A DNA stretch of 64,000 nucleotides from Anaerolineae bacterium (GCA_040767155.1 JAXGPC010000005.1:63492-127491), one strand, 5' to 3'. Numbered from the stretch's first letter, positions 2,788 to 44,255 are shown. Notes: generated from the sequence alone by a model not told the origin. Made by a program: numbers and translations.

Positions 2788-5370
2788 GTGGCTTGGATGA
2801 AGCCGAGACCCATTCGCACGTTTTCCGTTATCCCCTCGCTGCCCGAGGCATTGATGCCTCTGTGGCGGCTGGCACACAACCTGCGCTGGGCCTGGAAGCA
2901 TGATGCCATCGAGTTGTTCATTCGCCTGGATAGCGAGTTGTGGGAGCGGACGAACCACAATCCCGTGCGCATGCTGGGAATGATCAGCCAGGAGCGCCTG
3001 GAGAAAGTCGCGTCCGACGTGGGGTTCCTGGCGCACCTGGAGCGTGCGACGGCGTACCTGGATGAATATATGAAACAGACCGGGACCGCCTGGTTTGACC
3101 GCACGTACGGTCAGCAGGAGGCGCCGATCATTGCCTACTTCTCGTTGGAGTTTGGACTCACGGAATCACTGACTATCTTCGCTGGTGGCCTGGGGGTGCT
3201 TGCGGGCGACCATCTCAAGTCCTCGAGCGATCTCAATGTCCCGTTGGTCGGCGTGGGATTGCTCTATCAACAAGGGTACTTTCGGCAGTATCTTAACCAG
3301 GCCGGTTGGCAACAGGAGGCGTACGAGGACAATCACTTCGACAATCTCCCGTTGACGCTGGAACGTGGTCCGGATGGCGAACCGCTAGTGGTCGATGTGC
3401 AATTCCCCGGGCGTAAAGTCTTTGCCCAGATATGGCGTGTGCAGGTCGGGCGTGTTCCCCTCTATCTCCTGGATACGAATACACCGCAGAATGGCCGCCC
3501 CCAGGACCGCGATATCACCGATCAGCTCTACGGTGGGGATCAGGATCTGCGCGTCAGACAGGAGATACTGCTGGGTATCGGCGGCTATCGGGCACTCAGG
3601 GCCCTGGGCTTGCTCCCTGTGGTCTATCACATGAACGAGGGGCATTCTGCATTCCTGGCGCTCGAGCACATTCGCAAGCTGATGCTTGACCATGGGCTTA
3701 GCTTTGCTGCAGCCCGCGAGGCAGCCGCAGCCAGTTGTGTCTTTACGACGCATACGCCAGTGCCGGCGGGCCACGATAGGTTTCCGCCCCACTTGATGCA
3801 GCACTACTTCCACGACTACGCCACGCGGGAGCTGGCCTTGAGTTGGCATGACTTCATGGCCCTGGGCCGTGAGAACCCTTTCGATACCAATGAACTGTTC
3901 TGCATGACGGTCCTGGCTATCCGACTGTCGTCGGACACCAATGGGGTAAGCGCCCTCCACGGTGAGGTGTCACGGCAGATGTGGCAGGGTCTGTGGCCTG
4001 GAGTGCCCCAACAGGAGATTCCCATCTCCCACGTCACCAACGGTGTTCACATACTCTCCTGGATCTCCCGTGACATGAAGGTGCTCTACGACCGTTACCT
4101 CGGCCCTCGCTGGCGAGAGGAACCCGGCGATCCGGAGGTCTGGAAGCTGGCGATGGATATCCCGGCGGATGAACTCTGGCGTACGCATGAGCGTCGTCGG
4201 GAACGTCTGGTCGGCATAACCAGGCAACGCCTGGAGCGCCAGTTGGAGCAACGCGGTGCGCTGTTGAGCGACCTCAGTATCGCCGAAGAGGTGTTGGACC
4301 CCGAGGCATTGACCATTGGTCTGGCACGGCGCTTCGCAACCTACAAGCGAGCGACGTTGATCATGCACGATCCTGACCGTCTTGACCGCATCCTCAACAA
4401 TCCGGGCCGCCCTGTACAGATTATCTTCTCTGGAAAAGCGCATCCCAAGGATGATCCCGGCAAGGCGATGATCCAGAAGATCATCGATCTGAGCCGGCAG
4501 GAGCGCTTCCGCAATCGAATCGTCTTCCTGGAGGACTACGACATGATTGTGGCCCGCTATCTGGTTCAGGGCTGCGATGTCTGGCTTAATACGCCCAGCC
4601 GGCCCAGGGAGGCCAGCGGGACCAGCGGTATGAAGGCTGCAGCCAATGGTGTGCTGAACATGAGCACACTGGATGGGTGGTGGGCTGAAGCCTATCACCG
4701 CGAGGTAGGGTGGGCCATTGGTCGGGGCGAGACATACAACGACCCCGATTACCAGGATCGTATCGAGGCAGAGGCACTGTATGACCTATTGGAGCGCGAT
4801 GTGGTTCCCACGTTCTACGACCGGGGGGGGCGTGTCCCACGGCGTTGGGTCGAGTTGATGAAGGCCAGCATCGCTGATCTTTCGTACTTCTTCAATACCA
4901 ACCGGATGGTAGCAGAGTACACTGACCGATTCTACGTCCCCCTGGCCTTGCGCTATCACCAGCTTGCCGCGGACGATTTCGCCAGGGCCAAGGATCTTGC
5001 TGCCTGGCGTGAGCGGCTGCTTCGCGATTGGGCACAGATTCGCGTTGACTCGGTCAATGGCGAGCTACCAGCACAGATCCCGGTAGGCCAGACGTTCACG
5101 ACTCATGCTGAGGTATACCTCGGTGTCATCCGGCCCGAAGACGTTCGTGTCGAGGTCTACCTTGGACTCGTGAATCCCAACGGCGAGTTGGTCCCGGGGA
5201 GGCCGGTCGCAATGCGGGTCAGCAAGGAACTCGGTGGGCAGCGCTATCTCTACGAGGCGGACGCCCAGTGTTCAATGAGCGGCCTCCATGGATATACTGT
5301 GCGCGTATTGCCCTACCATGAGGATCTGGTGACACCCATCCAACATGGCTTGATCCGCTGGGCTGGCTAG
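2788..5370 (+). CDS. glgP: alpha-glucan (glycogen/maltodextrin) phosphorylase, GT35, GlgP family
   Basis: 860 aa. GLGVLAGDHLKSSSDLNVPLVGVGLLYQQGYFRQ is the GT35 glucan-phosphorylase N-terminal signature. TTHTPVPAGHDRF and a C-terminal PLP-binding region (NTPSRPREASGTSGMKAAANG) support the call. Confidence 0.9.
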   Translation: MAWMKPRPIRTFSVIPSLPEALMPLWRLAHNLRWAWKHDAIELFIRLDSELWERTNHNPVRMLGMISQERLEKVASDVGFLAHLERATAYLDEYMKQTGTAWFDRTYGQQEAPIIAYFSLEFGLTESLTIFAGGLGVLAGDHLKSSSDLNVPLVGVGLLYQQGYFRQYLNQAGWQQEAYEDNHFDNLPLTLERGPDGEPLVVDVQFPGRKVFAQIWRVQVGRVPLYLLDTNTPQNGRPQDRDITDQLYGGDQDLRVRQEILLGIGGYRALRALGLLPVVYHMNEGHSAFLALEHIRKLMLDHGLSFAAAREAAAASCVFTTHTPVPAGHDRFPPHLMQHYFHDYATRELALSWHDFMALGRENPFDTNELFCMTVLAIRLSSDTNGVSALHGEVSRQMWQGLWPGVPQQEIPISHVTNGVHILSWISRDMKVLYDRYLGPRWREEPGDPEVWKLAMDIPADELWRTHERRRERLVGITRQRLERQLEQRGALLSDLSIAEEVLDPEALTIGLARRFATYKRATLIMHDPDRLDRILNNPGRPVQIIFSGKAHPKDDPGKAMIQKIIDLSRQERFRNRIVFLEDYDMIVARYLVQGCDVWLNTPSRPREASGTSGMKAAANGVLNMSTLDGWWAEAYHREVGWAIGRGETYNDPDYQDRIEAEALYDLLERDVVPTFYDRGGRVPRRWVELMKASIADLSYFFNTNRMVAEYTDRFYVPLALRYHQLAADDFARAKDLAAWRERLLRDWAQIRVDSVNGELPAQIPVGQTFTTHAEVYLGVIRPEDVRVEVYLGLVNPNGELVPGRPVAMRVSKELGGQRYLYEADAQCSMSGLHGYTVRVLPYHEDLVTPIQHGLIRWAG

Positions 5371-5401
5371 GGATTGGCCTGCTGGACAGAGCTAGCAACG
5401 G

Positions 5402-6277
5402 TCAGGGTGCCAGTGACACCTCAAGGATACGGTCCTTGCCGGCCAGATCACGATGGATCCGGGAGTGCGTCCCCCGGCGGGCATACCGCTCGAAGGCCGT
5501 CGTGGCCATGGTGATCACGGCGTCGCCCTGATTCGCGCCAATCTCTATCAAGAGCATGCCGCCGGAAGCCAGACGGGTGGCTGCCTGGTCGAGAAGCCTG
5601 AGGATGGCATCCAGCCCGTGCGGGCCAGAGACGAGCGCGTGCCGCGGTTCCTGTTGGACTGAACGGGGGAGAACATGCCATTCGCTCTCGGTGACGTAGG
5701 GTGGGTTGCTGATGATCAGGTCGAAGTGGTTGACCAGGGGGGTCAAGAGGTCAGCCTGTATCCAGGCAATCCGTTTAGCGACGTTGTGCCGCTCTGCGTT
5801 GTCACGAGCCACGTCCAGCGCCGGGGCCGAGATGTCCGTGGCCCAGATGCGTGATCTCGGAGCTTCCATAGCCAGCGTGACTGCGATGCAACCTGATCCT
5901 GTGCCAACATCGACCACGCGGCTACGAGGTTGGTGCTCAATGCGGTTCAGGGCCAGCTCAACCAGAAGTTCCGTCTCGGGCCTGGGGATTAGGACGGCGG
6001 GAGTGACGCAAAACTCGGACCCGAAAAACTCCATATGACCGAGGATGTAGGGCAGCGGCACATTCGCGGCTCGCCGCTCTATAGCGCCCCTGAACTGCTC
6101 GCCCTGTTCGGGTGTAAGCAGCCATTCGGGATGGGCCAGAACCGTGGTCCTGTCGACGTGCAAGACCCAGGCGAGCAGTCGCTCGGCTTCGGTGTGAGGG
6201 CGGTCGGTAACCTGCGCCAGCTGTGCGAAGGCCCATTGCAGTGCCTCGCGTGCTGCTGACAGGGCAGATGACGTCAC
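5402..6277 (-). CDS. prmC: release factor glutamine N5-methyltransferase PrmC (HemK)
   Basis: SAM-binding VVDVGTGSGCIAV and the catalytic NPPY motif (LIISNPPYV). Length 291 aa. Confidence 0.85.
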   Translation of the reverse strand: MTSSALSAAREALQWAFAQLAQVTDRPHTEAERLLAWVLHVDRTTVLAHPEWLLTPEQGEQFRGAIERRAANVPLPYILGHMEFFGSEFCVTPAVLIPRPETELLVELALNRIEHQPRSRVVDVGTGSGCIAVTLAMEAPRSRIWATDISAPALDVARDNAERHNVAKRIAWIQADLLTPLVNHFDLIISNPPYVTESEWHVLPRSVQQEPRHALVSGPHGLDAILRLLDQAATRLASGGMLLIEIGANQGDAVITMATTAFERYARRGTHSRIHRDLAGKDRILEVSLAP

Positions 6278-6307
6278 GTCTGGGTTTGACTCCCGCTGGC
6301 CTGATGC

Positions 6308-6979
6308 CTACTCGTGGCGGAAGCGATCCTCGAGCTTTTCCAGTAGTTCGGCGGCCTCGACCAGCTTGTCGAGTGGGTTCTGCTTTCCCGTGAAGTACCG
6401 GTAGTCACACGGCATGATGTCCAGCCGCGTGACCAGGGTCTCATGATGCTTCCGGATCGTCTCCGCCGATGTCTCGTAGGTGTTGGCAAGCTCTTCCAGC
6501 ACCACGTCGTGGAGGTTCACCTTGCGCACCGTATAGTCCACCGCGGCTGCCCATGCCTCGGGCTTGGGGATAGCGAGTGGCTCCTCCCCCAGGCTAATGC
6601 GGAACTCCATCCACATCTGGATGGCCGCACCGATGAGGTCAATCGGCAGATGGGTAGCGGTCATGCGTTCGGTGATGACGTTCTCGACCGGGTCCATTCC
6701 GCTGGCGAAGAGCTGTTCGATACGACTGGCAACCTTTGACTCAGGCTCCAGTCTGAGGTAGTTGGCCAGTGCCCGAAGTGCACGGTCGAAGTCACCGGCA
6801 CGCGAGAGAACCTGCGCCAGGCGCATGTGATAGGTCGCGTTGTCAGGGTGCAGCGCTACGACTGCTTCCAGTCCCTTGACTGCATCCTCAACATCCCAGC
6901 GTTCATACGCCGCAAGGGCCTTGTCATAGATCGTCTGAGCTTTGCGCCGCTTGACCGCCGCTGACTGATCTGGACTCAT
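6308..6979 (-). CDS. TPR-repeat protein, function unknown
   Basis: TPR-like helical repeats (AYERWDVEDAVKGLEAVVALHPDNATYHMRLAQVLSRAGDFDRALRALANYLRLEP). Preferred start is ATG at 6979, preceded by a GGAGG RBS; the longer ORF to 7018 lacks an RBS. It lies directly upstream of prmC on the same strand. Confidence 0.6.
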   Translation of the reverse strand: MSPDQSAAVKRRKAQTIYDKALAAYERWDVEDAVKGLEAVVALHPDNATYHMRLAQVLSRAGDFDRALRALANYLRLEPESKVASRIEQLFASGMDPVENVITERMTATHLPIDLIGAAIQMWMEFRISLGEEPLAIPKPEAWAAAVDYTVRKVNLHDVVLEELANTYETSAETIRKHHETLVTRLDIMPCDYRYFTGKQNPLDKLVEAAELLEKLEDRFRHE

Positions 6980-7085
6980 TGCGACCTCCATGGATGGTGA
7001 CACCGTGTGCATTCTCATTATAGCATCGGAGGCTTGCTTGCCAACAGAGTGTCAGATTTCGGTATGCGCTTGCTGCCCGGATGGA

Positions 7086-9317
7086 TCACCACCAACGTTC
7101 GGAAACGACATCCACTCCCCACGAGGCCAGTAGGGCTCTCACCTCGTCCCAGTGGGCCTCGTTGACAATTGCAAGATTCTCCGTGCCGGGTAAGGGGCGT
7201 AACCAACGGTGTAGGAGAGGTTCGGCGGCGCGCAATTCGCCAAGCGACTCACTGCGTTTGAGCCGGAGCAGGCGCACCTGGGCTGTTTGACCTGTGCCAA
7301 AGTGTTTGCCCCAGGCTACGATGTGCTTCTCCACGTCCGCAGGCAGCGCAGACCCGGTCAGCGTTTTCAGGGTAGCAACGATCTCAGATGGCGTATAACC
7401 CGATGTGGATGCCTTCTCGATGGACTCGGGCGTGAGGAGCCACCGTCTACCATTGGGTTCTGCAAAGCGCATCAGCGCCCCGGTAACGTAGAGACTGGGT
7501 GACGCTGTACGGGGTTCCAGTTCGACGCCTTGCCACCGCATGCTGTTGGGTAGATCAGCCTGCGCCCCCTGGGACGCCGCCGGCAACAGCTCGAGGTCCA
7601 GCAGGCACTGCTGGACCCGGTTGAGCTCGTTCGGAAGGAACCACGCCGTCCGCTCATCGATGGGATGGAGAAGCGATCGGAGTTCAGGGACGTCGAGTAA
7701 TAACAACAGGCGCTCGGGAGTATCGACTTGAAGGATCCTGACACTGCGGCGGATGACGATTCGCTCGTATTGCTGATACCATTCCTCGAGCGATCGCTGG
7801 ATGTTTTGGGGGATGACTTGCCCCGTAGTCTCTTCCAGATATGCCGTGATGCTCTCTACAGTCTCACCACTCTGCAACGCCCTGTACACGGCATCACGTG
7901 TGAGCCGATAGGTGATGACGGTCTTGTCAATCTTCTCCCGGCGCGCAATCTGTTCCAACCCGGCCAGTACCCGCAACGGGACCGGGCCCAAAGCAAGTAC
8001 CTGGAAATCGGGCTGGAGGATCATCTGCCAGGGTTGCTCGAGGATGCTCGGTAACGGCCCTGCCGGAGGTGCAGGGATCATCGCTTCCTGCATCGCGCGA
8101 ATGGCCACAGGGGTTACTGCCTCAGTGCTGGCGTAGCCCAATTCGACCAGCCCCATCGTGCAAAGCTCCTCGAGCGCGCAGCGGGTCAGGTTCAACTCCA
8201 TACCGCTGAGAGTTCGCTCTACCTCAGCGCGGTACGTGTTCTCATAGTAGTGGAGCTGACCGTAGATGACGCTCACGGTCTGCTCTGTGAACATGAGGCT
8301 GCCCGGTAGCTCACCCACCAGCACGTTCATGACGAACTCGAAGGGAATCCAACCGGTGGTCGCCAACTGTTCCAACGTTCCCAGAATTCGCTCGCGTAAC
8401 ACGGAGGGCGGCAAGACTTCGAGTCCCTGGAGGTAACCGGTCAGGCGTATTGCGGCCCGATCCTGACAGAGGGGACAGGTCATTCGAACGTAGGCTCTGC
8501 GCAGATCGTGTGTATGCTGCGTTCGCTTGGCACCCCAGAAGAGGGTGGCGGCGTGGCCCTCCACTGCGCTGATCTCCGTTCCGGATTTCTGCACCAGGTT
8601 CAGCGCGACCAACACTTCATAGAGCCAGGCTACGCTGTCCAGTCCCCCGGGTTCGGCGAAGCCCACAGCCTCAGCCAGCCTTCGTCGCTCACGTTTTCCC
8701 AGTCCCCCGGACTTGAGCGGCTGTGCGGGCTGGTTACGCAACTCGGTCCACACGAACAGAAGCTCGCGTAGGAATGCGCCTAGATCGCGGGAAGCAACCT
8801 GCGCTGGTCTCAGGTCTGCGCGCGCAAAGAGATCGGGTTGCGGTGTGGGCTGACGCAGGAGCGCCAGAGGCAGAGCGCTGCGCACCTCTGCAGGCACGTC
8901 GAAGGTCGTCTGAAGCATCAGCGTTCGGGGGCTGCGATCGAAGCTCGGCGTAGCTACATTCACGATGAGACCTTTGTGCAGCAGATCGAACATCACGTGT
9001 CGTGCCCGCGGCCGGAACGGTTCCTCGGTCTGGTTGTCAGTCGACGCCATTCCTGCCAACATCAAGGGGCGCGCCACTTGGGGTAGCGTGAAGGGCCCCT
9101 CCCTCGTCACCATCACTGCCAACGCAGCCTGCTCAGCATCGGTCAGAGTCTGAACATAGGCGGGCGTGCTGGCATTGCGAGGGATGGTCTCACACAACCT
9201 GGTGATCAGCCAATCCTTGCGCGGCGGCTTGCTGTCCAGTTTAAGTCCCAGGTGCTCGGCGATTTCACGGAGCCCACCGACGGTATAGGTCTGCAATCCG
9301 GCTTCTAGGGGCAGCAT
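7086..9317 (-). CDS. large hypothetical protein (743 aa), third gene of the XPB-helicase operon
   Basis: Long ORF with coding-like composition. Its start (9317) is 2 nt after the stop of the upstream 640-aa ORF, indicating translational coupling. I recognise no catalytic motif. Confidence 0.65.
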   Translation of the reverse strand: MLPLEAGLQTYTVGGLREIAEHLGLKLDSKPPRKDWLITRLCETIPRNASTPAYVQTLTDAEQAALAVMVTREGPFTLPQVARPLMLAGMASTDNQTEEPFRPRARHVMFDLLHKGLIVNVATPSFDRSPRTLMLQTTFDVPAEVRSALPLALLRQPTPQPDLFARADLRPAQVASRDLGAFLRELLFVWTELRNQPAQPLKSGGLGKRERRRLAEAVGFAEPGGLDSVAWLYEVLVALNLVQKSGTEISAVEGHAATLFWGAKRTQHTHDLRRAYVRMTCPLCQDRAAIRLTGYLQGLEVLPPSVLRERILGTLEQLATTGWIPFEFVMNVLVGELPGSLMFTEQTVSVIYGQLHYYENTYRAEVERTLSGMELNLTRCALEELCTMGLVELGYASTEAVTPVAIRAMQEAMIPAPPAGPLPSILEQPWQMILQPDFQVLALGPVPLRVLAGLEQIARREKIDKTVITYRLTRDAVYRALQSGETVESITAYLEETTGQVIPQNIQRSLEEWYQQYERIVIRRSVRILQVDTPERLLLLLDVPELRSLLHPIDERTAWFLPNELNRVQQCLLDLELLPAASQGAQADLPNSMRWQGVELEPRTASPSLYVTGALMRFAEPNGRRWLLTPESIEKASTSGYTPSEIVATLKTLTGSALPADVEKHIVAWGKHFGTGQTAQVRLLRLKRSESLGELRAAEPLLHRWLRPLPGTENLAIVNEAHWDEVRALLASWGVDVVSERWW

Positions 9318-9319
9318 TG

Positions 9320-11242
9320 CTATACTTCTTTTGGCATATAGCCCTGTCGGGTCAGGTCGCTGAGCAGGTCATCGACGCTTCCCTCATCTAGGAGCAGTGC
9401 CTTTGGAGTCAATGCTCCAAGAGATGAGGCTTGTAGATGGGGGAGCGAAGCCTGCAGCTCTTGCATCGTGAATGCATCGCGCGTTTGGAGCAGGGCCTGC
9501 GCTGGGTAGAGGCGCACGTGTCCGTACCGCTGCCACCACATCTCCCACCATTCGTCGATCGATGGCAGGGGTTCAAGGCCTGAGGTGGCAGTCCACGCTG
9601 CCCTGAGCGCCTCAGGGTCCAGTCCCTGTTCGAAGGCCCGGTGAAGCATCTTGACATCCAGACGGTAGCGAACCAGGGTGCGCGAGAACCCCGCTGGCGT
9701 AGCCCACTGTAAAACAAACGCCAGAAAGGGAGGGGGAATGGGGGTTTCGATCTCCAGGATTGATTCGCCTGGTGAGAACCGTATTGCTTTCTGGCTCATC
9801 CCGACGATGACATCCAGTGACACTTCTTCTTGTCGCTCCCACTGCAAGTCCTGGAGATCACGAAGCCGTATGGCTTTGACATCATCCAGTCCCGGCCCAA
9901 GCTCTACCAACCCCAGGGCAAGCAATGGCCCCGTGAGGATACTGAGCAACACCAGCTCAAGGAAGTCTAGCCAACCTCCCTTGGGCCCCTGTGGGTTCAG
10001 GCCCAGCAGGTACTGCTGGGTGTCCGGTGTTGGGAAGAGTGCGGCAATCCATTTCAACAGATCGCGGGTTGCGAGCCATTGGTTCTGTGGAAGAGCGGAC
10101 AGTAACTCGAGAATGACCTCGCGCAGATATCTGACAACGTCTTTGACACTGCGGTCGATCGAGCTGAGCCCCCAGTAGCCGTGGTAGAGACGTTTCACAC
10201 GAACTTGCTCGCCCCGCCACTGTGTCCACCACTCGGCCCACGACTCGGTGTCACGCCATAGCTGATACAGGACCCCCACCTGTCGCCCTGGAGGGAGCGA
10301 CAGCCACTGCTGTGCCAGTGCACTGTCCACCGTGATCGGGCTACCCTGCAAGACAATTCCGCCGGTCTCCAGGAGTGCGTACAGAAACTCTGCCCGCTCC
10401 TCTGAGCAACCTAGCGCCTCGGCCCACGCAGCCAGCGCTCCATCGGTCGGCGCGGGATCTGGCGGCAGGAGCTCGATCGCTCCGTCCATGTCCACGTGGG
10501 AGTTGAGTCTCCGGGCGTCGGCTGGGATAATGGGCCAGCACGTGATCTGCTGTGCAAACTGGTAAGTGGGTGCCTGCCAGCGCAGCCGATCGCGCAGCTT
10601 CCACGATTCGGACTGGAGCAGGATGAGCAGTTGCTGAACCTGAGTCAGGATCTGCAGGCTGTCGGCTGCCACAACCTGCCGCGGTGCCTGGCAGGAAGCG
10701 AAGGGCAATGAGATGGGTGGGAGACTACGCCGCAGGCCAACCGGAAGGTAAAGGTCACCAGCCTCTGTTTCCAGGGCCAACGACACCTTCCGGATGCGCC
10801 GCGCGAGTTTGGACCAGTCGGTGGTGAATCCCTCCCACAGCTTCTTCCCCAGGGGCCTCGCGTTACGATGGTGGAGATAAGTCTGTAAGATCAGCGTGAC
10901 ATAATAGCGCAATTCCTCGTCGGAGAGGCTGTGCACGGCGTTGGACAGGCGTTCTCGATCGAGGAAGAGCTCGGCCAGATGCCGGGTTACCTGGTGACGC
11001 GTAGCCCCTTCCGGCTGATCCCCTATGGGCGCAATCAGCTCACGAAGATGCGCGATCCGCCACTGTGCCAGATCGAGCTCGTTCACCGTGCGTGAGACTG
11101 GGTCGAGTTTCCCTATCGACCACAGGTGCGCTATGTCAGGACGCCTGGGCTGTGGAGGCGATTCCCAACGATAGCCGATTTCCGGGGACAGTGCGCCCGT
11201 CATTTTGGTACCTGGTTGCTTGTCGGTAGACTTGGTGTTCAT
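9320..11242 (-). CDS. large hypothetical protein (640 aa), Trp-rich, second gene of the XPB-helicase operon
   Basis: ATG at 11242 is 1 nt from the TAG stop of the helicase gene. No recognisable enzymatic motifs. Trp-rich segments such as WAEWWTQWRGEQ and EWWEMWWQRYG. Confidence 0.65.
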   Translation of the reverse strand: MNTKSTDKQPGTKMTGALSPEIGYRWESPPQPRRPDIAHLWSIGKLDPVSRTVNELDLAQWRIAHLRELIAPIGDQPEGATRHQVTRHLAELFLDRERLSNAVHSLSDEELRYYVTLILQTYLHHRNARPLGKKLWEGFTTDWSKLARRIRKVSLALETEAGDLYLPVGLRRSLPPISLPFASCQAPRQVVAADSLQILTQVQQLLILLQSESWKLRDRLRWQAPTYQFAQQITCWPIIPADARRLNSHVDMDGAIELLPPDPAPTDGALAAWAEALGCSEERAEFLYALLETGGIVLQGSPITVDSALAQQWLSLPPGRQVGVLYQLWRDTESWAEWWTQWRGEQVRVKRLYHGYWGLSSIDRSVKDVVRYLREVILELLSALPQNQWLATRDLLKWIAALFPTPDTQQYLLGLNPQGPKGGWLDFLELVLLSILTGPLLALGLVELGPGLDDVKAIRLRDLQDLQWERQEEVSLDVIVGMSQKAIRFSPGESILEIETPIPPPFLAFVLQWATPAGFSRTLVRYRLDVKMLHRAFEQGLDPEALRAAWTATSGLEPLPSIDEWWEMWWQRYGHVRLYPAQALLQTRDAFTMQELQASLPHLQASSLGALTPKALLLDEGSVDDLLSDLTRQGYMPKEV

Positions 11243-11243
11243 C

Positions 11244-13016
11244 CTAGGAGCCCATGTCGTCCAGCAGCACTCGCCTCTGCGTGTGGGGAAGCGCCCCGGG
11301 AATCTCTTCGCCGTAGAGGATCAGATAGCGGTAGCCCTGCTCGGTCAGGAATCGCTGGCGGTTAGCACTGAAATCCTGGTCGACGGTCTCTTTGGTCACG
11401 ATTGTGTAGAAGTAGGCCTGCCCTCCGTTCGCTTTGGGGCGCAGGATGCGCCCGAGGCGTTGCGCCTCTTCCTGGCGCGAACCGAAGGTTCCCGAGATCT
11501 GGATGGCTACGTTGGCATCCGGAAGGTCGATCGAGAAGTTGGCGACCTTTGAGACGACCAGGGTAGTGATCTCCCCATTGCGGAACTTCTCGTAGAGCTC
11601 CTCTCGTTCAGCGACCTTGGTCTTTCCGGTGATGATCGGGAGGTCATAGCGTTTGGCGATCAGCTCCAGTTGTTCCAGATACATGCCGATGATGAGGATG
11701 CGATCGCCTTCGTGATAGGCCAGAAGCTTGTCGAGGATGTCGAGTTTGATCGTCGCGTCCGCTGCGACGCGGTACTTCTGTCGCTGCTCCGCCATGATGT
11801 ACGTCATTCGCTCGTCCTCGGACATCGCGACACGGATCTCGTAACAGACGGCAGGGGCGATCCAGCCCTGTCGTTCCAGGTCATGCCAAGGCACATCATA
11901 CTTCTTGGGGCCGATCAACGAGAACACATCCTCTTCACGGTTATCCTCACGGACCAGCGTTGCTGTGAGGCCGAGGCGGCGGCGCGCCTGTAGCTCTGCC
12001 GTGATGCGGAAGACCGGGGCGGGGAGCAGGTGTACCTCATCGTAGATGATGAGTCCCCAGTTGCCCTCGCTGAAGAGCGCGAAATGAGGGTACTGCTCTG
12101 CGAGCGAGGGCGCGTCATGGGCCTTGGTGCCGCGCTTGCGGTGGGTGAGGATCTGGTAGGTGGTCACCGTGACCGGGCGGATCTCCTTGCGCTCGCCGGT
12201 ATACTCGCCAATCTGATCTTCCGTCAGCGTGGTCTTAGAGAGCAACTCCTCGCGCCACTGCCGTGCGGCGACGGTGCTGGGAGTCAGGATGAGCGTGTTC
12301 GTCTGCACCTGTGCCATCGCCACCATGCCAACGATCGTCTTGCCGGCACCGCACGGGAGGACGATGACCCCTGCCCCTCCGGCATCGTCGCCATTGGCCC
12401 AGAAGATCTCGGCTGCATCGCGTTGGTACCCCCGGACGGTGAAGGGCGTTTCGTCCGTTGTCAGCGCACGGAGCTGGAGTTCCAGCGGCGCGCCCTGGAG
12501 ATAGCCAACGAGGTCCTCTGCGGGATACCCAGCCTTGACCAGGGCCTGTTTGACATGGCCTCGCCGAGAGGCGGGCACCTGCAACGTGTGTGGCCCCAGA
12601 CGGTCCAGCACAAAGAGCTTGAGGAACTGGTTCTTCTCCAGCTCGATGAGGAGCATCGGCTCGTCCGACGTCAGTCGCAGTCGCTCGGAGTCGTAGGGAT
12701 CGCGGGTCAGTCGTACCCTGCCATAGCGACCGATGGCGTCGCGGATCTCGAACACGACGTTGTCAGGGAGCGGGTATTTGGCAAATCGCTGTAGGCCGGA
12801 GATGATGCCTTCGGCGTCAAGTCCAGCGGCTGCGGCGTTCCATAGAGAAAGCGAAGAAATCCGGTAAGTGTGGATGTACTCCGGACTCTTCTCCAGCTCG
12901 GCGAAACGTGCCAGATGGTCCCGTGCAGCTTCGTAGTCCGAGCTGTTCACTTCCAGCAGGACCGTCCGGTCACTTTGGACGATAAGCGGTGCATCAACGC
13001 GGAAATCCATATCCAA
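11244..13016 (-). CDS. XPB/Rad25/ERCC3-type SF2 DNA helicase (bacterial XPB homolog)
   Basis: Walker A LPCGAGKT, DEVH box (IYDEVHLLPA), motif III GLTATLVRED and helicase C motifs. The N-terminal roughly 200 aa resemble the XPB damage-recognition domain. Start is TTG at 13016 or ATG at 13010. Confidence 0.85.
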   Translation of the reverse strand: MDMDFRVDAPLIVQSDRTVLLEVNSSDYEAARDHLARFAELEKSPEYIHTYRISSLSLWNAAAAGLDAEGIISGLQRFAKYPLPDNVVFEIRDAIGRYGRVRLTRDPYDSERLRLTSDEPMLLIELEKNQFLKLFVLDRLGPHTLQVPASRRGHVKQALVKAGYPAEDLVGYLQGAPLELQLRALTTDETPFTVRGYQRDAAEIFWANGDDAGGAGVIVLPCGAGKTIVGMVAMAQVQTNTLILTPSTVAARQWREELLSKTTLTEDQIGEYTGERKEIRPVTVTTYQILTHRKRGTKAHDAPSLAEQYPHFALFSEGNWGLIIYDEVHLLPAPVFRITAELQARRRLGLTATLVREDNREEDVFSLIGPKKYDVPWHDLERQGWIAPAVCYEIRVAMSEDERMTYIMAEQRQKYRVAADATIKLDILDKLLAYHEGDRILIIGMYLEQLELIAKRYDLPIITGKTKVAEREELYEKFRNGEITTLVVSKVANFSIDLPDANVAIQISGTFGSRQEEAQRLGRILRPKANGGQAYFYTIVTKETVDQDFSANRQRFLTEQGYRYLILYGEEIPGALPHTQRRVLLDDMGS

Positions 13017-13132
13017 GCTATTTTACCCGACCGGCGGGCTTCGTCAACGTGGCCCTTCATGATAGAATGCCATTTGGCGACTGGGGGGGGCAACCCCGGG
13101 CGCGACCCATTCTCAATCGAGGAGGTCAGCCG

Positions 13133-14161
13133 ATGCACCACGTCTTGGTGACGGGGGGAGCAGGTTTCATCGGGTCGAACTTCGTGCGCTATTTCCTTCA
13201 GGCACATCCGGATTACCACGTCGTCGTCTATGACAAGCTCACCTATGCGGGCCGCCTGGAGAATCTGCAGGATGTGGCCGAGGCATTCGCTGGTCGCTAT
13301 GCCTTTGTCCGCGGGGACATCTGTGATATTCCTCTCGTCGAGCAGACGATTGCGCACTACAGCGTCGACACAATCGTGAACTTCGCTGCAGAGACCCACG
13401 TCGACCGCTCTCTGATGGCGCCAGGCTCCTTTATCCAGACGGATGTCTACGGCACGTTCGTCTTGCTCGAGGCAGCTCGGAAGGCTGGATTGGAGCGCTA
13501 CCACCAGATCAGCACTGACGAGGTCTATGGACAGGTGTTGGATGGTCGTTCGGTGGAGACCGATCACCTCGAGCCGCGGAGTCCCTACGCTGCCAGCAAA
13601 GCGGCTGGCGATCTGATGGTGCTCGCCTATCGTGAGTCGTGGGGGATGCCCGTGACCATCACGCGGGGTTCCAACAACATCGGGCCCTACCAGTATCCCG
13701 AAAAAGTGGTGCCACTCTTTGCGACCAATGCCATCGACGATCAGCCTCTGCCAGTCTATGGCGATGGCCATCAGATGCGTGACTACCAGCATGTGCTGGA
13801 CCACTGTACCGGCATCGACACGGTGTTACACAAGGGCGAGCTGGGCGAGATCTACAATGTTGGTACAGGGTCGGAGCTGACCAACATCGAGATGACACAG
13901 ATCGTGTTGAGGACTTTGGGTAAGCCAGAAAGCCTCATTAAGCACGTTGAGGACCGGCCCGGGCATGACCGGCGTTACGCCCTCGACGTGAGCAAGCTCC
14001 ATGCGCTGGGATGGGATAACGTCTACAACTGTGCACAGGCGGTTGAGGAAACGACACGCTGGTATGCGGACAATGCGTGGTGGTGGCGACCCATCAAGAG
14101 TGGTGAGTTGTACAAGGACTACTACGCCCAGCAGTACGCCAGGCGACTCGAGCAGGCGTAG
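13133..14161 (+). CDS. rfbB: dTDP-glucose 4,6-dehydratase
   Basis: MHHVLVTGGAGFIGSNFV Rossmann NAD motif and catalytic YAASKAAGD (YxxxK), with overall RmlB-like sequence. GGAGG RBS at 13121-13125 precedes ATG 13133. The ORF-track start at 12989 is an unsupported upstream extension. Confidence 0.9.
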   Translation: MHHVLVTGGAGFIGSNFVRYFLQAHPDYHVVVYDKLTYAGRLENLQDVAEAFAGRYAFVRGDICDIPLVEQTIAHYSVDTIVNFAAETHVDRSLMAPGSFIQTDVYGTFVLLEAARKAGLERYHQISTDEVYGQVLDGRSVETDHLEPRSPYAASKAAGDLMVLAYRESWGMPVTITRGSNNIGPYQYPEKVVPLFATNAIDDQPLPVYGDGHQMRDYQHVLDHCTGIDTVLHKGELGEIYNVGTGSELTNIEMTQIVLRTLGKPESLIKHVEDRPGHDRRYALDVSKLHALGWDNVYNCAQAVEETTRWYADNAWWWRPIKSGELYKDYYAQQYARRLEQA

Positions 14162-25006: not shown

Positions 25007-28000
25007 GTGCCATACTGTGATACAGACACCTGGGCACCGAGGGAAAGAATGCAGCGACAAGCGAATGGCAGCCTCGGCTCACGCCCGACGGTCGGCATCG
25101 TCATGCGGGGCTTCCGCCGCCCCGACTATGACATCTGGCTGAGTGCGACGGAGGCTGCCGGTGAGGCAGGCCTCAATGTTCTGACCTTTGCCGGTCAGCC
25201 ACTCCGGTCTCCCGTTGGGTACGAGCACCAGGCCAACTCGGTATACGATCTGATCAACCCTCGCCGGCTGGCTGGTATTATCTTGCTTACCAGCGGGCTG
25301 GGCCTCTATGTGGGGGTTGAGGGGATGCGCTCCTTCTGTGCTCCCCTGTCTGGCACCCCCCTTGTGAGCGTCCAGATGCTCTTGCCCGGTATTCCCAGTA
25401 TCCTCATCGACAATTACCGGGGAATGCGCGAGGTTGTCGACCATCTCATCGACGTGCACGGCTACCAGCACATAGCTTTTTTGCGCGGCCCCTTGACCCA
25501 CCGTGGGGCGCGCGAGCGCTATCGCGCCTATGTGGAGTCGCTCGAGGCCCACACTATTGCGGTTGATCCCCACCTTGTGATGCCTCCTGGCGAGGGTTGG
25601 GAGAACCGTGAGGGCATTGGGCGGTTCTTGGCAGGCTTTGGGCGCCAGCTTCCTCGCCGTGTCGAAGCGATTGTGGGTACGAGCGCCTCACTGGCACAGC
25701 AGGCGCTGGCGTGGCTGGTGCAGCATGGCTTCCGCGTTCCCGAAGATGTTGCGCTGACTGGGTTCGACGACTTTCCCCACCTGACCGGCATGACGCCTCC
25801 GCTGACGACGACACACGCTCCTTTCGACGAAGTAGGTCGCAGGGCTATCTCGATGCTGCTGGCACAAATGCGGGGTGAGCAGGTCCCCTTGGTCCAGGAA
25901 ATACCGACACGGATCGTCGTCCGTCAATCCTGCGGCTGCCCTAGCGAAGCAACTCTTCGCGCTAGCCTGCTGCGTCCGGATAGGGTCGCAACTGTACCCC
26001 TACGGATCAATACTCTGGCTGCTGATCCGGTTCCCGCTCTACAGGCTCGGAGGGAAGAAATCGTGCCGGAGATCATCCAGCTGGTTTCCGGTCATGCCAC
26101 CACGAACTGTGAAGAGCTGGGCACCTGGGCTGCCAGGTTGATTGATGCACTGATCGCCGACCTGAGCGCCCCGGAGTCCCAGCTCAGCAAGGTTTCTGCG
26201 GACTCGTCCTTCGTGAGACTCTTGGCGCAGGCGGTGCTCGATTGTGCGCAGGGACGTCACGATGTGACGTGCTACCAGGATCTCATCTCATTGTTGCGCC
26301 GTGTTGCCATCGGCCCGTTGATGGCCCCAATTGGCGCCATTCCTGCACCGATAGCACGCAGCTGGGCTCTTGCCGAGGAGCTTTTCACGCAGGCACGGAT
26401 CATCGCCGGACAGAGTGCTGAGAGTCTCGTCGCAGCTTCGCAGTTTGCTATGGGGCAGCAAGCTGTCTCATTGACGCAGGTGGGACACATCCTTACGACC
26501 GTGACCGATATGGACGAGCTCAGGACCACTTTGGCGCAAGAACTGCCAAAACTCGGCATCCGGGGGTGCTTTGTAGCACTCCGTGAGGAAGGATCGTCTG
26601 ACATAGGACAGGTCCGACTTCAGTTTGCAAGTACCGCAAGGGGTCCTATTGACGTGCCGGACGTCGGTGTGTGTGCCCGGGTCGAGGAGATTCTTCCGGC
26701 AGGCATGTTCCAGCAGCTTGATCGCGATGGTCCATTCAATCTGGTGGCTGAATCGCTCTTTGTGCGCCACGACCAGTATGGATATGTTCTGTTTGGCGTA
26801 GGGCCGCGCGATATCCTCTTCGAGGATCAACCAACACAGAGTACGGTGTATGACCTGGTGCGAAGTTATATCAGCGACGCGCTTTGCGGCATCTTGCTTT
26901 ACGATCAAGCCGTGCGTGCGCGGCAACAAGCTGAGGAGGCCGACAGGCTCAAAAGTCGCTTCCTGTCCATGGTGAGCCACGAGTTAAGGACCCCACTGAA
27001 CCTGATCGTCAGCGTGAGCGAGATGCTGTTGTGGGAACAGCACAGTCACGAACAGGAGCTCATGCGCATTCATGCCAGTGCCCAGCATCTGGACGGCCTG
27101 ATCCGCGACGTATTGGACCTGGCCAGCAGCCAGGTCGGCCAACTCCGTCTGGTCCGCGAGCCACTTGATCTCCGGCAGGCGTTGGAGGTTGTGCTGATGA
27201 TTGGGCAGCAGATGGCGCAGGACAAGGGGCTGGCCTGGTCGACGCAAATCCCGGAGTCGTTACCGCGAGTTCTGGGCGACCGGACCCGGCTACGCCAGGT
27301 TGCACTGAACCTGGTCAGCAATGCCATCCGCTTCACGTCAGCGGGTGAGGTGCGTCTGGCCATAGAGACGGCCCCGGGTGAGGTCAAGGTGCTCGTGAGT
27401 GACACTGGCATTGGCGTACCGTCAGAAGAACATGAGTCCATCTTCGATGAGTTCAGGCAGTCGGAGCGAACCACCACCCGTGGATATGGTGGCCTGGGAT
27501 TGGGGTTGGCGATCAGTCGCCGACTGGTCGAGATGCACGGTGGCACAATAGGTGTCACCTCTAGCGGCGTGGAGGGCGAGGGAGCCACGTTCTACTTCAC
27601 GTTGCCGACCGTGGGGCCAGGGTGCGCCAGCCAACCGGACTTCCGCGACTCCCAGGCTGCAAGGATGGTCTTGGTAGTCTCCGAAGCCGACAGTGAGGCT
27701 CGCGAACTGTGTGCCTACCTCGAAGATGCCGGATATGGGGTGCATGAGTTCCGCATCGAAGGGCGTGAGGCCCTTAACAACCCTGAGGCGTGGCTCAAAG
27801 AAGTACTCCTGTGTGCGCCGAGCGCCGTAATCCTGGGCATGGGACCGGCATCGGAACACGGCTGGGCGATGCTCAAGGTACTCAAAGAGAATCCCGCAAC
27901 ACAGAGCATCCCTGTATTGTTCTATGCATTGTTGCAGTCGGATCGGGGCGGTTCTATGCTTGCTCTGGATTACCTTACCAAGCCAATGAGCATTGCTGAT

Positions 28001-28795
28001 CTGGTCCAGGTGCTGGAACGACAGGGGGTTGCGGTATGGGAAACCCGTGATGGGGACGGGCGTGTTCCTGGCTGTGAGCTTCCAGCTACGATCCTGCTCG
28101 TTGACGACGAACCCGAGATTCTCGGCACGCACAGTTGGCTTTTGCAGTCACAGCTCCCCGACAGCCGGATTCTTCAGGCAACGGACGGGCGCCAGGCCCT
28201 TGAGACAATGTCCACCCTACGACCTGACTTGGTGCTCCTCGACTTGATGATGCCGGGAATGAGTGGTTTCGAGGTGATCGCAGCAATGCAGACGTCTCCC
28301 CATCTGGCCGATGTTCCGGTCGTGGTCCTCACAGGCAAGACTTTGACGGAGCAGGAACTGGAGCAGCTCAACCAGGGTGTTGCTGCTGTGCTCAGCAAGG
28401 GCTTGTTCTCTGCCCAGGAGACACTGCGCCATCTGGAGACTGCACTGCAACGTGGTTTTGTCGCCAACCCAGAGACCCGTAGGCTGGTGCGGCGGGCTAT
28501 GGCTTACATTCATGAGCACTATATGGAGCCGATCGCCCGTAAGGAGATCGCTGCGCACGTCAGCATCAGTGCGAGGCATCTGGATCGTTGTTTCTCCGAT
28601 GAGATCGGGATTACACCCATGGCTTACCTCAACCGCTTCCGCCTGCGGAATGCCAGACGGTTGCTCCAGAGCACGACGTTGAGCATCAGCGAGGTCGCCG
28701 CAGCCGTAGGGTTCTCCGATAGCAGTTACTTCTGCAGAGTGTTCCGGCGCGACCTGGGAATGTCGCCGACAGACTACCGGCACCTTCAGGTCTGA
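25007..28795 (+). CDS. hybrid sensor kinase/regulator. Domain order: LacI-type periplasmic-binding-protein-like sugar-binding domain without HTH; helical/GAF-like region; HisKA; HATPase_c; pseudo-receiver; receiver; AraC-type HTH
   Basis: Approximate domains. PBP type-I sugar-binding fold at about 25090-25930 (TVGIVMRGFRRPDY...LTGFDDFPH...). H-box SHELRTPLN, with the His codon at 26978. HATPase N/G boxes (LVSNAIRFT...DTGIGVP...GGLGLGLAI) at about 27300-27600. A receiver-like domain without the phospho-Asp at about 27665-28010. A canonical REC (ILLVDDEPEIL...LVLLDLMMPGMSGFEV...VVVLTGK) at about 28090-28400. AraC HTH (ISEVAAAVGFSDSSYFCRVFRRDLGMSPTDYR) at about 28470-28785. No TM segment or signal peptide. 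Confidence 0.85.
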   Translation: MPYCDTDTWAPRERMQRQANGSLGSRPTVGIVMRGFRRPDYDIWLSATEAAGEAGLNVLTFAGQPLRSPVGYEHQANSVYDLINPRRLAGIILLTSGLGLYVGVEGMRSFCAPLSGTPLVSVQMLLPGIPSILIDNYRGMREVVDHLIDVHGYQHIAFLRGPLTHRGARERYRAYVESLEAHTIAVDPHLVMPPGEGWENREGIGRFLAGFGRQLPRRVEAIVGTSASLAQQALAWLVQHGFRVPEDVALTGFDDFPHLTGMTPPLTTTHAPFDEVGRRAISMLLAQMRGEQVPLVQEIPTRIVVRQSCGCPSEATLRASLLRPDRVATVPLRINTLAADPVPALQARREEIVPEIIQLVSGHATTNCEELGTWAARLIDALIADLSAPESQLSKVSADSSFVRLLAQAVLDCAQGRHDVTCYQDLISLLRRVAIGPLMAPIGAIPAPIARSWALAEELFTQARIIAGQSAESLVAASQFAMGQQAVSLTQVGHILTTVTDMDELRTTLAQELPKLGIRGCFVALREEGSSDIGQVRLQFASTARGPIDVPDVGVCARVEEILPAGMFQQLDRDGPFNLVAESLFVRHDQYGYVLFGVGPRDILFEDQPTQSTVYDLVRSYISDALCGILLYDQAVRARQQAEEADRLKSRFLSMVSHELRTPLNLIVSVSEMLLWEQHSHEQELMRIHASAQHLDGLIRDVLDLASSQVGQLRLVREPLDLRQALEVVLMIGQQMAQDKGLAWSTQIPESLPRVLGDRTRLRQVALNLVSNAIRFTSAGEVRLAIETAPGEVKVLVSDTGIGVPSEEHESIFDEFRQSERTTTRGYGGLGLGLAISRRLVEMHGGTIGVTSSGVEGEGATFYFTLPTVGPGCASQPDFRDSQAARMVLVVSEADSEARELCAYLEDAGYGVHEFRIEGREALNNPEAWLKEVLLCAPSAVILGMGPASEHGWAMLKVLKENPATQSIPVLFYALLQSDRGGSMLALDYLTKPMSIADLVQVLERQGVAVWETRDGDGRVPGCELPATILLVDDEPEILGTHSWLLQSQLPDSRILQATDGRQALETMSTLRPDLVLLDLMMPGMSGFEVIAAMQTSPHLADVPVVVLTGKTLTEQELEQLNQGVAAVLSKGLFSAQETLRHLETALQRGFVANPETRRLVRRAMAYIHEHYMEPIARKEIAAHVSISARHLDRCFSDEIGITPMAYLNRFRLRNARRLLQSTTLSISEVAAAVGFSDSSYFCRVFRRDLGMSPTDYRHLQV

Positions 28796-41061: not shown

Positions 41062-41082
41062 TCAATCCAGGAGGTTTCTCAC

Positions 41083-42240
41083 ATGGCAAAGACAGGCGTA
41101 GGTGCACGTTGGGAATCGGAATTGTCCGTCCACCAGGACCCGAAGAGCGGGGCCACGGTCCACCAGTTGACAGCCTATAAGGGCCATAGTAGCCACTTCT
41201 ACTTCACATATCCGTGCTGGTATGACAAGGGCAGAAAGATCGTGTTCACCTCCGATCGCGAGAACCGGACGAACCTGTTTGGCGTTGACCTGGAGAGCGG
41301 CGAAATTACCCAGCTCACGGATTTTGACTCTGCGGAGGGAGGTGTCGGTGGTCTGAGCAAGAACCCGGTACGAGAGGAGATCTACTTCCACCGTGGTAGG
41401 GTCTTGACAGCGCTCGACCTGACGACGCTGGAGCAGCGTCCGATCTATACGCGCCCTGAAGGCTACGTGGGTGGCAGTTCGAATGCGACGGCTGACGGCA
41501 AGACCATCTGTGTGGGACACTACAAGGATCTCTCGGATCGCTTTATGATCGATCTGGGTCACGGCTACGTTGGTTTCCGCGAGATCTGGGAAGCCCATCC
41601 GCCCTCAACGATCTTGAAGATCCCGGTCGAGGGCGGCACCCCTGAGGTGATCTATCAGGAGGATTATTGGTTGGGGCACTTCAACTGCTCGGGTAAGCAC
41701 CCCAACATTATGACCTTCTGTCACGAGGGACCGTGGACACTGGTAGAGAATCGGATCTGGGGCCTTGACCTCAATACGGGTGAAGCTTGGCAGATCCGCC
41801 CCAATGCGCCTGGCGAGGCGATCGGGCACGAGTACTGGATGAGCGATGGCGAGCACATCGGTTACCACGGCACCACGCCGCAGGGGCCGGTCTACGGCGC
41901 GATCCGTTACGACAACACCGATCAAGTCGAGGCACCCTTTGAGGGGCATTGCTGGCATTTTCACAGCCATATGCTTGAGCTGGTGGTCGGTGACGGCGAT
42001 GCCAAGGATCCGTATCTGCTGCTGTGGCGCTTTCACGAGGGGGCGTTCGAAGGGCCAAAGGTCCTCGTCTGGCACCGCGGCTCTTTCCATACACAGCGGG
42101 TCCACCTCCACCCTTGCTTCAACAGCGAGGGGACGCAGGTGATCTATACGGCTGACCCACAGGGGTATGGGCAGGTCTTTGCTGTAGATGTGCCGGCGTG
42201 GGAGACGCTTCCTGACTTGGCCGATGTGAAGGCGAGGTGA
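41083..42240 (+). CDS. ogl: oligogalacturonide lyase (PL22 family, Ogl-like beta-propeller)
   Basis: Aligns with enterobacterial Ogl: TFCHEGPWTLVENRIW vs AFCHEGPHDLVDARMW; LELVVGDGDA vs TLLVGDGADA; HLHPCFNSEGTQVIYTAD vs HPHPSFTPDDKQVLFTSD. 385 aa, cytoplasmic. Confidence 0.8.
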   Translation: MAKTGVGARWESELSVHQDPKSGATVHQLTAYKGHSSHFYFTYPCWYDKGRKIVFTSDRENRTNLFGVDLESGEITQLTDFDSAEGGVGGLSKNPVREEIYFHRGRVLTALDLTTLEQRPIYTRPEGYVGGSSNATADGKTICVGHYKDLSDRFMIDLGHGYVGFREIWEAHPPSTILKIPVEGGTPEVIYQEDYWLGHFNCSGKHPNIMTFCHEGPWTLVENRIWGLDLNTGEAWQIRPNAPGEAIGHEYWMSDGEHIGYHGTTPQGPVYGAIRYDNTDQVEAPFEGHCWHFHSHMLELVVGDGDAKDPYLLLWRFHEGAFEGPKVLVWHRGSFHTQRVHLHPCFNSEGTQVIYTADPQGYGQVFAVDVPAWETLPDLADVKAR

Positions 42241-42247
42241 TATGATG

Positions 42248-42278
42248 CGGGGCGGCGCTGCGGGTGAGCGCCGCCCCG
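42248..42278 (+). other. perfect GC-rich stem-loop between ogl and the downstream paralog gene
   Basis: GGGGCGGCGC-tgcgggtga-GCGCCGCCCC, a 10-11 bp perfect stem with a 9-nt loop and no U-tract. Candidate intercistronic RNA processing/stability element or attenuator. Confidence 0.4.
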
Positions 42279-42308
42279 ACGCTATCACCAACTGACACAG
42301 AGGCATTC

Positions 42309-44237: not shown

Positions 44238-44255
44238 ACATAAAGGAGAGCTTCT

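Follow-up and report, generated by a model that had tools for sequence, protein, structure and literature searches.

A three-gene XPB helicase operon of an Anaerolineae bacterium and its probable kinship to the XPB–p52–p8 part of TFIIH

An XPB helicase and two large partner proteins are encoded as one unit

A 64,000-nucleotide stretch of the genome of an Anaerolineae bacterium (GCA_040767155.1, JAXGPC010000005.1:63492-127491; the window hereafter) carries on its minus strand a gene for an XPB helicase, followed almost without spacing by genes for two large proteins that we refer to as B640 (640 aa, gene 2) and C743 (743 aa, gene 3). The three genes are probably a single operon, whose products would correspond in bacteria to the XPB–p52–p8 part of TFIIH (Ssl2–Tfb2–Tfb5 in yeast). 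B640 and C743 are almost certainly functional partners, as the original prediction for this locus had proposed; gene order, coupled junctions and a domain shared with the XPB N-terminus all point that way. That prediction had also described three open reading frames (ORFs) on the minus strand with spacers of 1 and 2 nt, and the junction sequences agree; the ORFs run at 13016..11244 (590 aa), 11242..9320 (640 aa) and 9317..7086 (743 aa). The genes, their predicted domains and the two spacers are as follows.

11244..13016 (-): XPB (ERCC3/Rad25-type) superfamily 2 (SF2) DNA translocase/helicase, 590 aa, from NCBIfam, Pfam, motifs and PDB sequence matches
12606..12986 (-): XPB N-terminal domain (NTD), PF13625 "Helicase_C_3", aa 11-137, 112 bits
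11243..11243 (-): spacer XPB/B640, 1 nt, with stop TAG at 11246-11244 and ATG at 11242; reads ...TCC TAG g ATG...
9320..11242 (-): B640, Trp-rich, 640 aa, from profile comparison with the C743 family
9446..9742 (-): predicted clutch-type (XPB-NTD-like) domain of B640, aa 501-599, from a sub-threshold PF13625 match, alignment to C743 clutch 1 and a weak match to the human XPB NTD
9323..9529 (-): C-terminal ~65-aa module of B640, aa 572-640, a p8/Tfb5-like candidate, from profile scores
9318..9319 (-): spacer B640/C743, 2 nt, with stop TAG at 9322-9320 and ATG at 9317; reads ...GTA TAG ca ATG...
7086..9317 (-): C743, 743-aa p52/Tfb2-like protein, NCBI name "helicase-associated domain-containing protein"
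8088..9317 (-): N-terminal region of C743, aa 1-410, a SAP-like helix-hairpin and then a winged-helix chain
7671..8024 (-): clutch domain 1 of C743, aa 432-549, from PF13625 and BLASTP to XPB
7548..7772 (-): ~65-aa module of C743 after clutch 1, aa 516-590, in the position of the p8-binding C-terminal domain of p52
7113..7541 (-): second XPB-NTD-like domain of C743, aa ~593-735, from the second PF13625 stretch, BLASTP and the secondary structure of the model

GC content is about 60% and even over the operon region. Two of the starts have alternatives. XPB is listed from TTG 13016, with an ATG two codons downstream (13010) that would give 588 aa. B640 could start at Met14, matching the near-identical 627-aa database protein P0026, in which case the first spacer would be about 40 nt rather than 1 nt.

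Gene 1 encodes an apparently intact XPB with a eukaryote-type N-terminal domain

Gene 1 is predicted to encode a catalytically intact XPB translocase with a eukaryote-type NTD. The protein scores well above the equivalog cut-off of NCBIfam NF045503 "DNA repair helicase XPB" (853.7 vs 610 bits, profile positions 1-547 of 548), matches ResIII, ERCC3_RAD25_C and Helicase_C in Pfam, and retains Walker A GAGKT (aa 223), DEVH (326), TAT (351), the XPB-specific RED motif (356) and motif VI QRLGRILR (519). Together with PF13625 at aa 11-137, these matches bear out the earlier description of a helicase with all SF2 motifs and an XPB-like N-terminal domain. Its closest PDB sequences are yeast and human XPB (E 2e-84 to 2e-78), and the human chain 8ebt_A aligns in one stretch starting at query residue 6. 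With the crystallised archaeal XPBs, alignment begins only near residue 168 of the window protein, and the scores are 124-165 bits vs 269-287 bits for eukaryotic XPB. For the XPB of Mycobacterium tuberculosis, 3'-5' helicase or double-stranded DNA (dsDNA) translocase activity has been shown (PMC3353954).

C743 is a predicted p52/Tfb2 homolog

As judged chiefly from its modelled fold, C743 appears to be a p52/Tfb2 homolog in architecture, lying outside the curated Pfam Tfb2 family. Pfam assigns to it PF13625 alone, in two stretches (86.5 bits), which is the same domain as at the XPB N-terminus, and BLASTP with the operon's own XPB NTD aligns to both regions (XPB 35-106 with C743 454-525, E 3e-4; XPB 35-122 with C743 615-702, E 0.05). 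The second of these clutch-like domains is not found in B640 and has no counterpart in eukaryotic p52.

An AlphaFold2 model of C743, made from 25 bacterial sequences and no templates, has a mean predicted local distance difference test (pLDDT) score of 85. When the model was compared with the PDB by Foldseek, the best 21 matches were all p52/Tfb2 chains of human, yeast and Chaetomium TFIIH (E 1.5e-9 to 7.9e-5), and the XPB N-terminal region ranked directly after them. The p52/Tfb2 alignments span about 350-600 columns on targets of 289-461 residues, which is nearly the whole of p52, and the modelled fold is collinear with it, running from a winged-helix chain through the clutch to a C-terminal-type module. 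Among the kinds of fold that the original prediction had suggested looking for, the model holds winged-helix and clutch folds and no nuclease fold. A viral structure library searched with the same model as a negative control gave nothing at E <= 0.001 (best E 0.025). At the sequence level, the best PDB match of the C743 family profile was Tfb2 chain 6trs_A (E 0.012), in an alignment that takes in the final winged helix and runs into the beginning of the clutch, and 21 of 25 family members matched Pfam Tfb2 (PF03849) below threshold at E <= 1.

B640 is a probable second paralog

Profile and pairwise comparisons indicate that B640 and the first ~590 residues of C743 are diverged paralogs, the last ~150 aa of C743 being absent from B640. 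An hhalign comparison of the B family (37 sequences) with the C family (25 sequences) gave a probability of 99% and an E value of 3.4e-18; its 527 columns match B 59-640 to C 9-588, and the two window proteins find each other by BLASTP at E 7e-8. PF13625 stays under its cut-off in B640 (27.7 vs 34.2 bits), and all eight family members scanned match it below or near threshold. The clutch-type PF13625 domain is common to XPB, B640 and C743, with four copies in the operon. Searches of PDB sequences with B640 gave no match at E <= 1 for the single sequence, one unrelated and non-significant match (E 0.57) for an 8-sequence profile, and only a weak match to the XPB NTD (E 1.1) for a 37-sequence profile. 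The protein contains 26 Trp residues (4.1%), in agreement with its earlier description as Trp-rich.

B-type proteins in three distant triads are longer, at 741-796 aa (L059:~5080-6475, L065:5614-8004 and L066:3330-5576). They carry an N-terminal CxC...CxH motif with weak SWIM zinc-finger matches (14.6-17.9 bits, cut-off 19.6), and B640 of the window has no such SWIM-like region.

Chloroflexota-type loci keep the three genes together in a fixed order

Homologs of C743 are Anaerolineae proteins that bear the NCBI name given above. When species-representative genomes were scanned, 61 loci came up, almost all from Chloroflexota (Anaerolineae and Thermoflexia). In every one of the 42 loci that hold all three genes, these follow one another on one strand in the order XPB, B640 homolog, C743 homolog. 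Among the loci with enough upstream DNA, about 50 of them in Chloroflexota, none was without XPB. In locus L063 no 640-aa homolog was detectable. The junction between the second and third genes lies between -14 and +6 nt in 46 of 55 loci by our tally, and that between XPB and the second gene is less conserved (-50 to +144 nt). Identity to the window proteins is 61-92% for XPB, and 24-77% and 26-76% for the two partners. Such an arrangement goes far beyond chance, and inheritance has kept the three genes together as a fixed unit. Because flanking genes differ in the more distant loci, the linkage does not reflect inherited synteny alone.

A HMMER scan with the C743 family profile matched 3879 sequence clusters at E <= 0.001, some of which may have only the clutch domain in common, and 347 at E <= 1e-30. 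Distant members that were looked up in four metagenomic loci all belonged to the same type of triad, with overlapping junctions. Conservation of the two large ORFs beside XPB, on which the original prediction had made its case depend, is therefore seen in the 42 three-gene loci and again in these four triads.

Several loci depart from the simple layout. An sfsA gene of about 240 aa lies between XPB and the B gene in eight of them (L034, L035, L037, L038, L041, L042, L053 and L054), which belong to a subclade of Anaerolineae; in L034 it occupies 5140-5868, overlapping the XPB stop and ending 10 nt before the B start. SfsA has a restriction-endonuclease fold (PF03749, 2e-50, plus the SfsA_N oligonucleotide/oligosaccharide-binding (OB) domain), so that in this subclade the unit could have recruited a nuclease. 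No sfsA gene was found in the 64-kb window. One metagenome-assembled genome (MAG) yielded a match to residues 401-743 of the C743 homolog only, after a 1.2-kb gap (L044:6990-8223), for which an insertion, a frameshift or a fault in the assembly may be responsible. In another MAG, labelled Acidobacteriota, a triad-type locus (L057) with 28% identity to C743 could reflect mis-binning or horizontal transfer.

XPB genes of other phyla have a single large partner

Further XPB genes were sampled from records annotated "plasmid", some of which are chromids or chromosomes. In Paenibacillus, XPB overlaps a 657-aa helicase-associated gene; in Acaryochloris, a 622-aa hypothetical gene lies 3 nt upstream of XPB on a conjugative plasmid; in Actinomyces, an 847-aa helicase-associated gene is divergent from XPB; and in Tsukamurella, a 725-aa helicase-associated gene lies 3.5 kb upstream of XPB on the same strand, and a sigma-70 family gene stands in the interval. 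On two Deinococcus megaplasmids (L068 and L069), XPB is followed by a hypothetical gene of 99-115 aa and then by a helicase-associated protein gene of 805-811 aa. The small Deinococcus genes, lying between XPB and the p52-like gene, are located as follows.

L068:5526-5873: Deinococcus small protein gene
L069:5562-5861: Deinococcus small protein gene

Partners from Paenibacillus, Actinomyces, Tsukamurella and Acaryochloris fit the C743 profile better than the B640 profile, and within a small local database, the C743-profile matches in Deinococcus, Paenibacillus, Actinomyces and Tsukamurella have E values between 5e-16 and 1e-6. These comparisons suggest that C743 is the Chloroflexota member of a widespread family of bacterial XPB partners and that B640 is a lineage-restricted second paralog. 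The earlier statement that actinobacterial XPB neighbours a large conserved gene is borne out only loosely by the two loci seen here: the gene is nearby in Tsukamurella, without being adjacent, and divergent in Actinomyces. The M. tuberculosis genes Rv0862c and Rv0861c we take to be a helicase-associated protein/XPB pair. Two haloarchaeal XPB-like genes that were sampled had no partner gene adjoining.

A ~65-aa module may be related to p8/Tfb5

A module of about 65 aa is found at the end of B640 and after clutch 1 of C743, and its relationship to p8/Tfb5 is a lead that we hold with moderate confidence on the basis of profile scores and position. In p52, it is the p8-like C-terminal domain that comes immediately behind the clutch (PMC6422496). 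The small Deinococcus protein, which consists of a basic, AT-hook-like tail and a globular part of about 65 aa, looks like a stand-alone p8-like subunit. The two Deinococcus proteins score 19.4 and 12.7 bits against the B640 module profile (maximum of 1000 shuffles 8.2) and 20.7 and 13.8 bits against the C743 module profile (maximum of 1000 shuffles 7.5), and the three groups of modules, from B640, C743 and Deinococcus, align collinearly. When a combined module profile was run against 177,635 PDB sequences, the top five distinct matches were all yeast TFB5 constructs, that is, one protein, at a non-significant E of 0.37-0.56, with profile positions 28-60 aligned to Tfb5 23-55.

Other small genes were considered as p8-like candidates and set aside. 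The one beside the Actinomyces partner gene encodes a hydrophobic, unrelated protein, and small ORFs near the Acaryochloris and Tsukamurella loci gave no module match.

A proposed tethered XPB translocase

We infer the physical binding of the partners to XPB, and their cellular role, by analogy with TFIIH. There, the clutch of p52 and the NTD of XPB form a pseudo-symmetric dimer through their beta-sheets, and the C-terminal domain of p52 together with p8 cradles RecA2 of XPB (PMC6422496). According to a passage of PMC3353954 that cites Coin et al. 2007, p52 stimulates the XPB ATPase, and human XPB is insoluble without p52 and p8 (PMC7672443). By the same scheme, XPB, B640 and C743 would form a stoichiometric complex in which the clutch domain of one partner pairs with the XPB NTD through a beta-sheet, a pairing that would tether XPB and tune both its ATPase and its translocation on dsDNA. 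B640 and C743 would in turn pair through their ~65-aa modules, in the manner of p8 and the p52 C-terminal domain, and so cradle RecA lobe 2 of XPB. Anchoring of the complex, to DNA or to some other protein, may fall to the winged-helix chains and SAP-like N-termini, and XPB anchored in this way would open DNA like a fixed "wrench", as a dsDNA translocase on a tether. As a matter of speculation, the four clutch-type domains in the operon allow two pairs of the NTD–clutch type. DNA repair, or another transaction that needs local opening of DNA, is the most likely candidate for the cellular process. Of the roles that had been proposed for the partners, that of scaffold fits best, with C743 as a p52/Tfb2-like protein and B640 as its paralog, and for that of nuclease the searches found neither a fold nor a motif.

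Several observations weigh against this proposal. Mycobacterial XPB shows activity when purified by itself (PMC3353954), so catalysis does not strictly depend on partners. No member of the C743 family reaches the PF03849 cut-off of 34.5 bits, C743 itself scoring 12.2 and the best member, P0021, 31.5 (1.1e-7), and most of the sequence-level link to p52 comes from the clutch region and the winged helix that precedes it. In the Foldseek alignments the root-mean-square deviation is high and the template modelling (TM) score low, as expected of flexible multidomain chains, so that the collinearity of C743 with p52 rests on local 3Di matches. The match of the module to Tfb5 is non-significant taken alone (E ~0.4), and neither human p8 nor the p52 C-terminal domain was matched in the PDB sequence search. 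For B640 the structure model is poor (pLDDT 49, 7 sequences), which leaves its fold to the profile comparison. B640 is also far larger than p8, the additional clutch-like domain of C743 is not present in p52, and the stoichiometry and pairing scheme are guesses.

Alternative explanations

The same complex might serve transcription, with its winged-helix chains docking on RNA polymerase or promoters and XPB opening or remodelling DNA or removing stalled polymerase. The eukaryotic XPB–p52–p8 unit does open promoters (PMC6422496), both partners consist mostly of winged-helix domains, as is typical of transcription factors, and in Tsukamurella it is a sigma-70 family gene that separates XPB from the partner gene. 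However, bacterial RNA polymerase opens promoters without ATP, and no RNA polymerase or sigma gene was linked to the operon in the Chloroflexota loci examined. We regard a transcriptional role as unlikely, though it is the best placed of the alternatives.

Somewhat less probable still is that the partners do not bind XPB at all and are independent DNA-binding winged-helix proteins which share with it an operon and an ancestral domain. The invariant gene order and the overlapping or near-overlapping junctions, kept over deep divergence, argue against such independence, as does the nature of the shared domain, which in TFIIH is what mediates the binding of XPB to p52 (PMC6422496). The divergent partner gene of Actinomyces and the one 3.5 kb away in Tsukamurella are the loci that speak for it.

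A helicase–nuclease machine on the model of archaeal XPB, which works with the nuclease Bax1 (PMC7672443), would require one of the large proteins to be a nuclease that has escaped recognition and that cuts DNA once XPB has opened it. The presence of nuclease-fold SfsA within the operon of eight Chloroflexota loci suggests that a nuclease can be recruited, but SfsA is not in this window. Pfam, NCBIfam and PDB sequence searches of both partners, and fold searches of C743, found no nuclease domain or motif, and winged-helix, clutch and p8-like modules account for both proteins from end to end. With neither domain nor fold in its favour, a nuclease identity for B640 or C743 was rejected, and the machine as a whole is very improbable.

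Least probable of all is an anti-phage or anti-plasmid defence system in which foreign DNA would be recognised and attacked by the XPB-like helicase with two accessory proteins; the fast evolution of the partners beside an XPB that stays 61-92% identical, the copies on Deinococcus megaplasmids and a conjugative Acaryochloris plasmid, and partial matches of the helicase core to PADLOC helicase models (for example PbeA, 93.8 bits) would fit it, but that match is to a generic SF2 core, PADLOC-DB 2.0 has no family for either partner, no matches occur among phage genomes or viral structures, no mobile-element genes lie nearby, no effector domain was seen, and the neighbours are the housekeeping genes prmC, rmlB, ttcA-like and leuS in a synteny kept across many genomes. 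On the PADLOC, phage-genome and viral-structure negatives and this context, the defence module put forward in the original prediction was rejected.

Relation to known XPB complexes and significance

The proposed XPB–p52–p8 counterpart resembles TFIIH in several respects. The window XPB has the same NTD, RED motif and RecA core as the eukaryotic protein; C743 has the part order of p52, with a clutch homologous to the XPB NTD; and a module the size of p8 is a separate gene in Deinococcus. It differs from TFIIH in having two p52-like proteins instead of one, so that the role of p8 may fall to the end of the 640-aa protein, and C743 differs from p52 in its extra clutch-like domain and in a Pfam Tfb2 score below threshold. 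No p34-, p44-, p62- or XPD-type genes were linked in the loci examined, a statement about linkage since no genome-wide search was made. As in the archaeal XPB–Bax1 system (PMC7672443), the XPB gene adjoins that of a dedicated partner and a complex on opened DNA is expected, but Bax1 is a nuclease that sits on the thumb and HD2 region of XPB, whereas the partners here have no nuclease domain and carry the XPB N-terminal domain. Unlike this operon, the loci of Deinococcus, Paenibacillus, Actinomyces and Tsukamurella have one large partner, to which Deinococcus adds the small p8-like gene. Only loci of the Chloroflexota type showed B640 as a second large paralog and the fixed order XPB–B–C.

A 2026 review calls the function of bacterial XPB elusive and leaves bacterial partners unmentioned. 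A literature search on Rv0862c, PF13625/Helicase_C_3, bacterial homologs of p52, Tfb2 or Tfb5, and XPB partners found no functional description, subscription-only papers being outside its scope. The adjacency itself is already implicit in the annotation of databases, where proteins with the shared domain are marked "helicase-associated domain-containing protein"; what appears to be new is the full-length relationship to p52, the second paralog and the p8-like module. These would give a specific annotation to thousands of such entries, and they suggest that bacterial XPB be studied as a complex rather than alone. Defects in the regulation of XPB by p52 and p8 underlie human xeroderma pigmentosum and trichothiodystrophy, and the operon may offer a small, soluble bacterial model of that regulation.

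It also bears on the origin of the XPB-holding part of TFIIH. A tentative and, in our estimate, doubtful extension is that the XPB–p52–p8 assembly, as a minimal "bottom lobe" of TFIIH, is genuine and anciently related in bacteria of at least five phyla, and that the XPB-holding part would have entered eukaryotes from bacteria, or been exchanged between both, and would not be a eukaryotic invention, with the crystallised archaeal XPBs, which have no NTD, using Bax1. If this were true, such an ancient bacterial assembly would be a simple experimental model of the control that p52 and p8 exert over XPB.

Promoters and surroundings of the operon

Two promoter-like sites bracket the three-gene unit, both of them consensus matches only.

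13020..13047 (-): promoter-like site TTGACG-16 nt-TAAAAT, from a consensus scan and the sequence only
7044..7017 (-): promoter-like site before the next gene downstream of the operon, consensus match only

The first lies directly upstream of the XPB start, within a 116-bp divergent region shared with rmlB, and an mRNA made from it would be leaderless or nearly so. This region follows from a revised start of rmlB. As listed (window 12947-14161, GTG 12989), the rmlB ORF overlaps the XPB start; its true start is likely ATG 13133, preceded by GGAGG at 13121-13125, which leaves the 116 bp as a divergent promoter region. A 285-aa minus-strand ORF at 12947-13804 is antisense to rmlB, has no family match and is probably spurious. 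The site scan found no terminator-like site after C743, and Rfam and tRNA scans found no RNA elements at the locus.

Downstream, 67 nt beyond the operon, lies a gene for a 236-aa tetratricopeptide repeat (TPR) protein (6308-7018, minus strand) that has its own promoter-like site at 7044..7017. Roughly half of the loci have this gene behind the operon too; with identities of 67-96% it is far more conserved than B640 and C743. About 39 kb from the XPB operon and unlinked to it, the window encodes a bacterial relative of the other TFIIH helicase, an 826-aa protein (52018-54498, minus strand) in which N-terminal TPR repeats are fused to a DinG/XPD-family helicase (DEAD and Helicase_C_2). A plus-strand array at 38488-46178 holds ORFs of 857, 657 and 640 aa with no Pfam match at E <= 0.01, together with an oligogalacturonate-lyase-like gene and ATPases of an oligopeptide-type ATP-binding cassette (ABC) transporter. 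Finally, a 1262-aa hybrid protein (25007-28795, plus strand) joins histidine kinase and receiver parts to a periplasmic-binding domain and an AraC-type helix-turn-helix, an ordinary but large two-component system in one protein.

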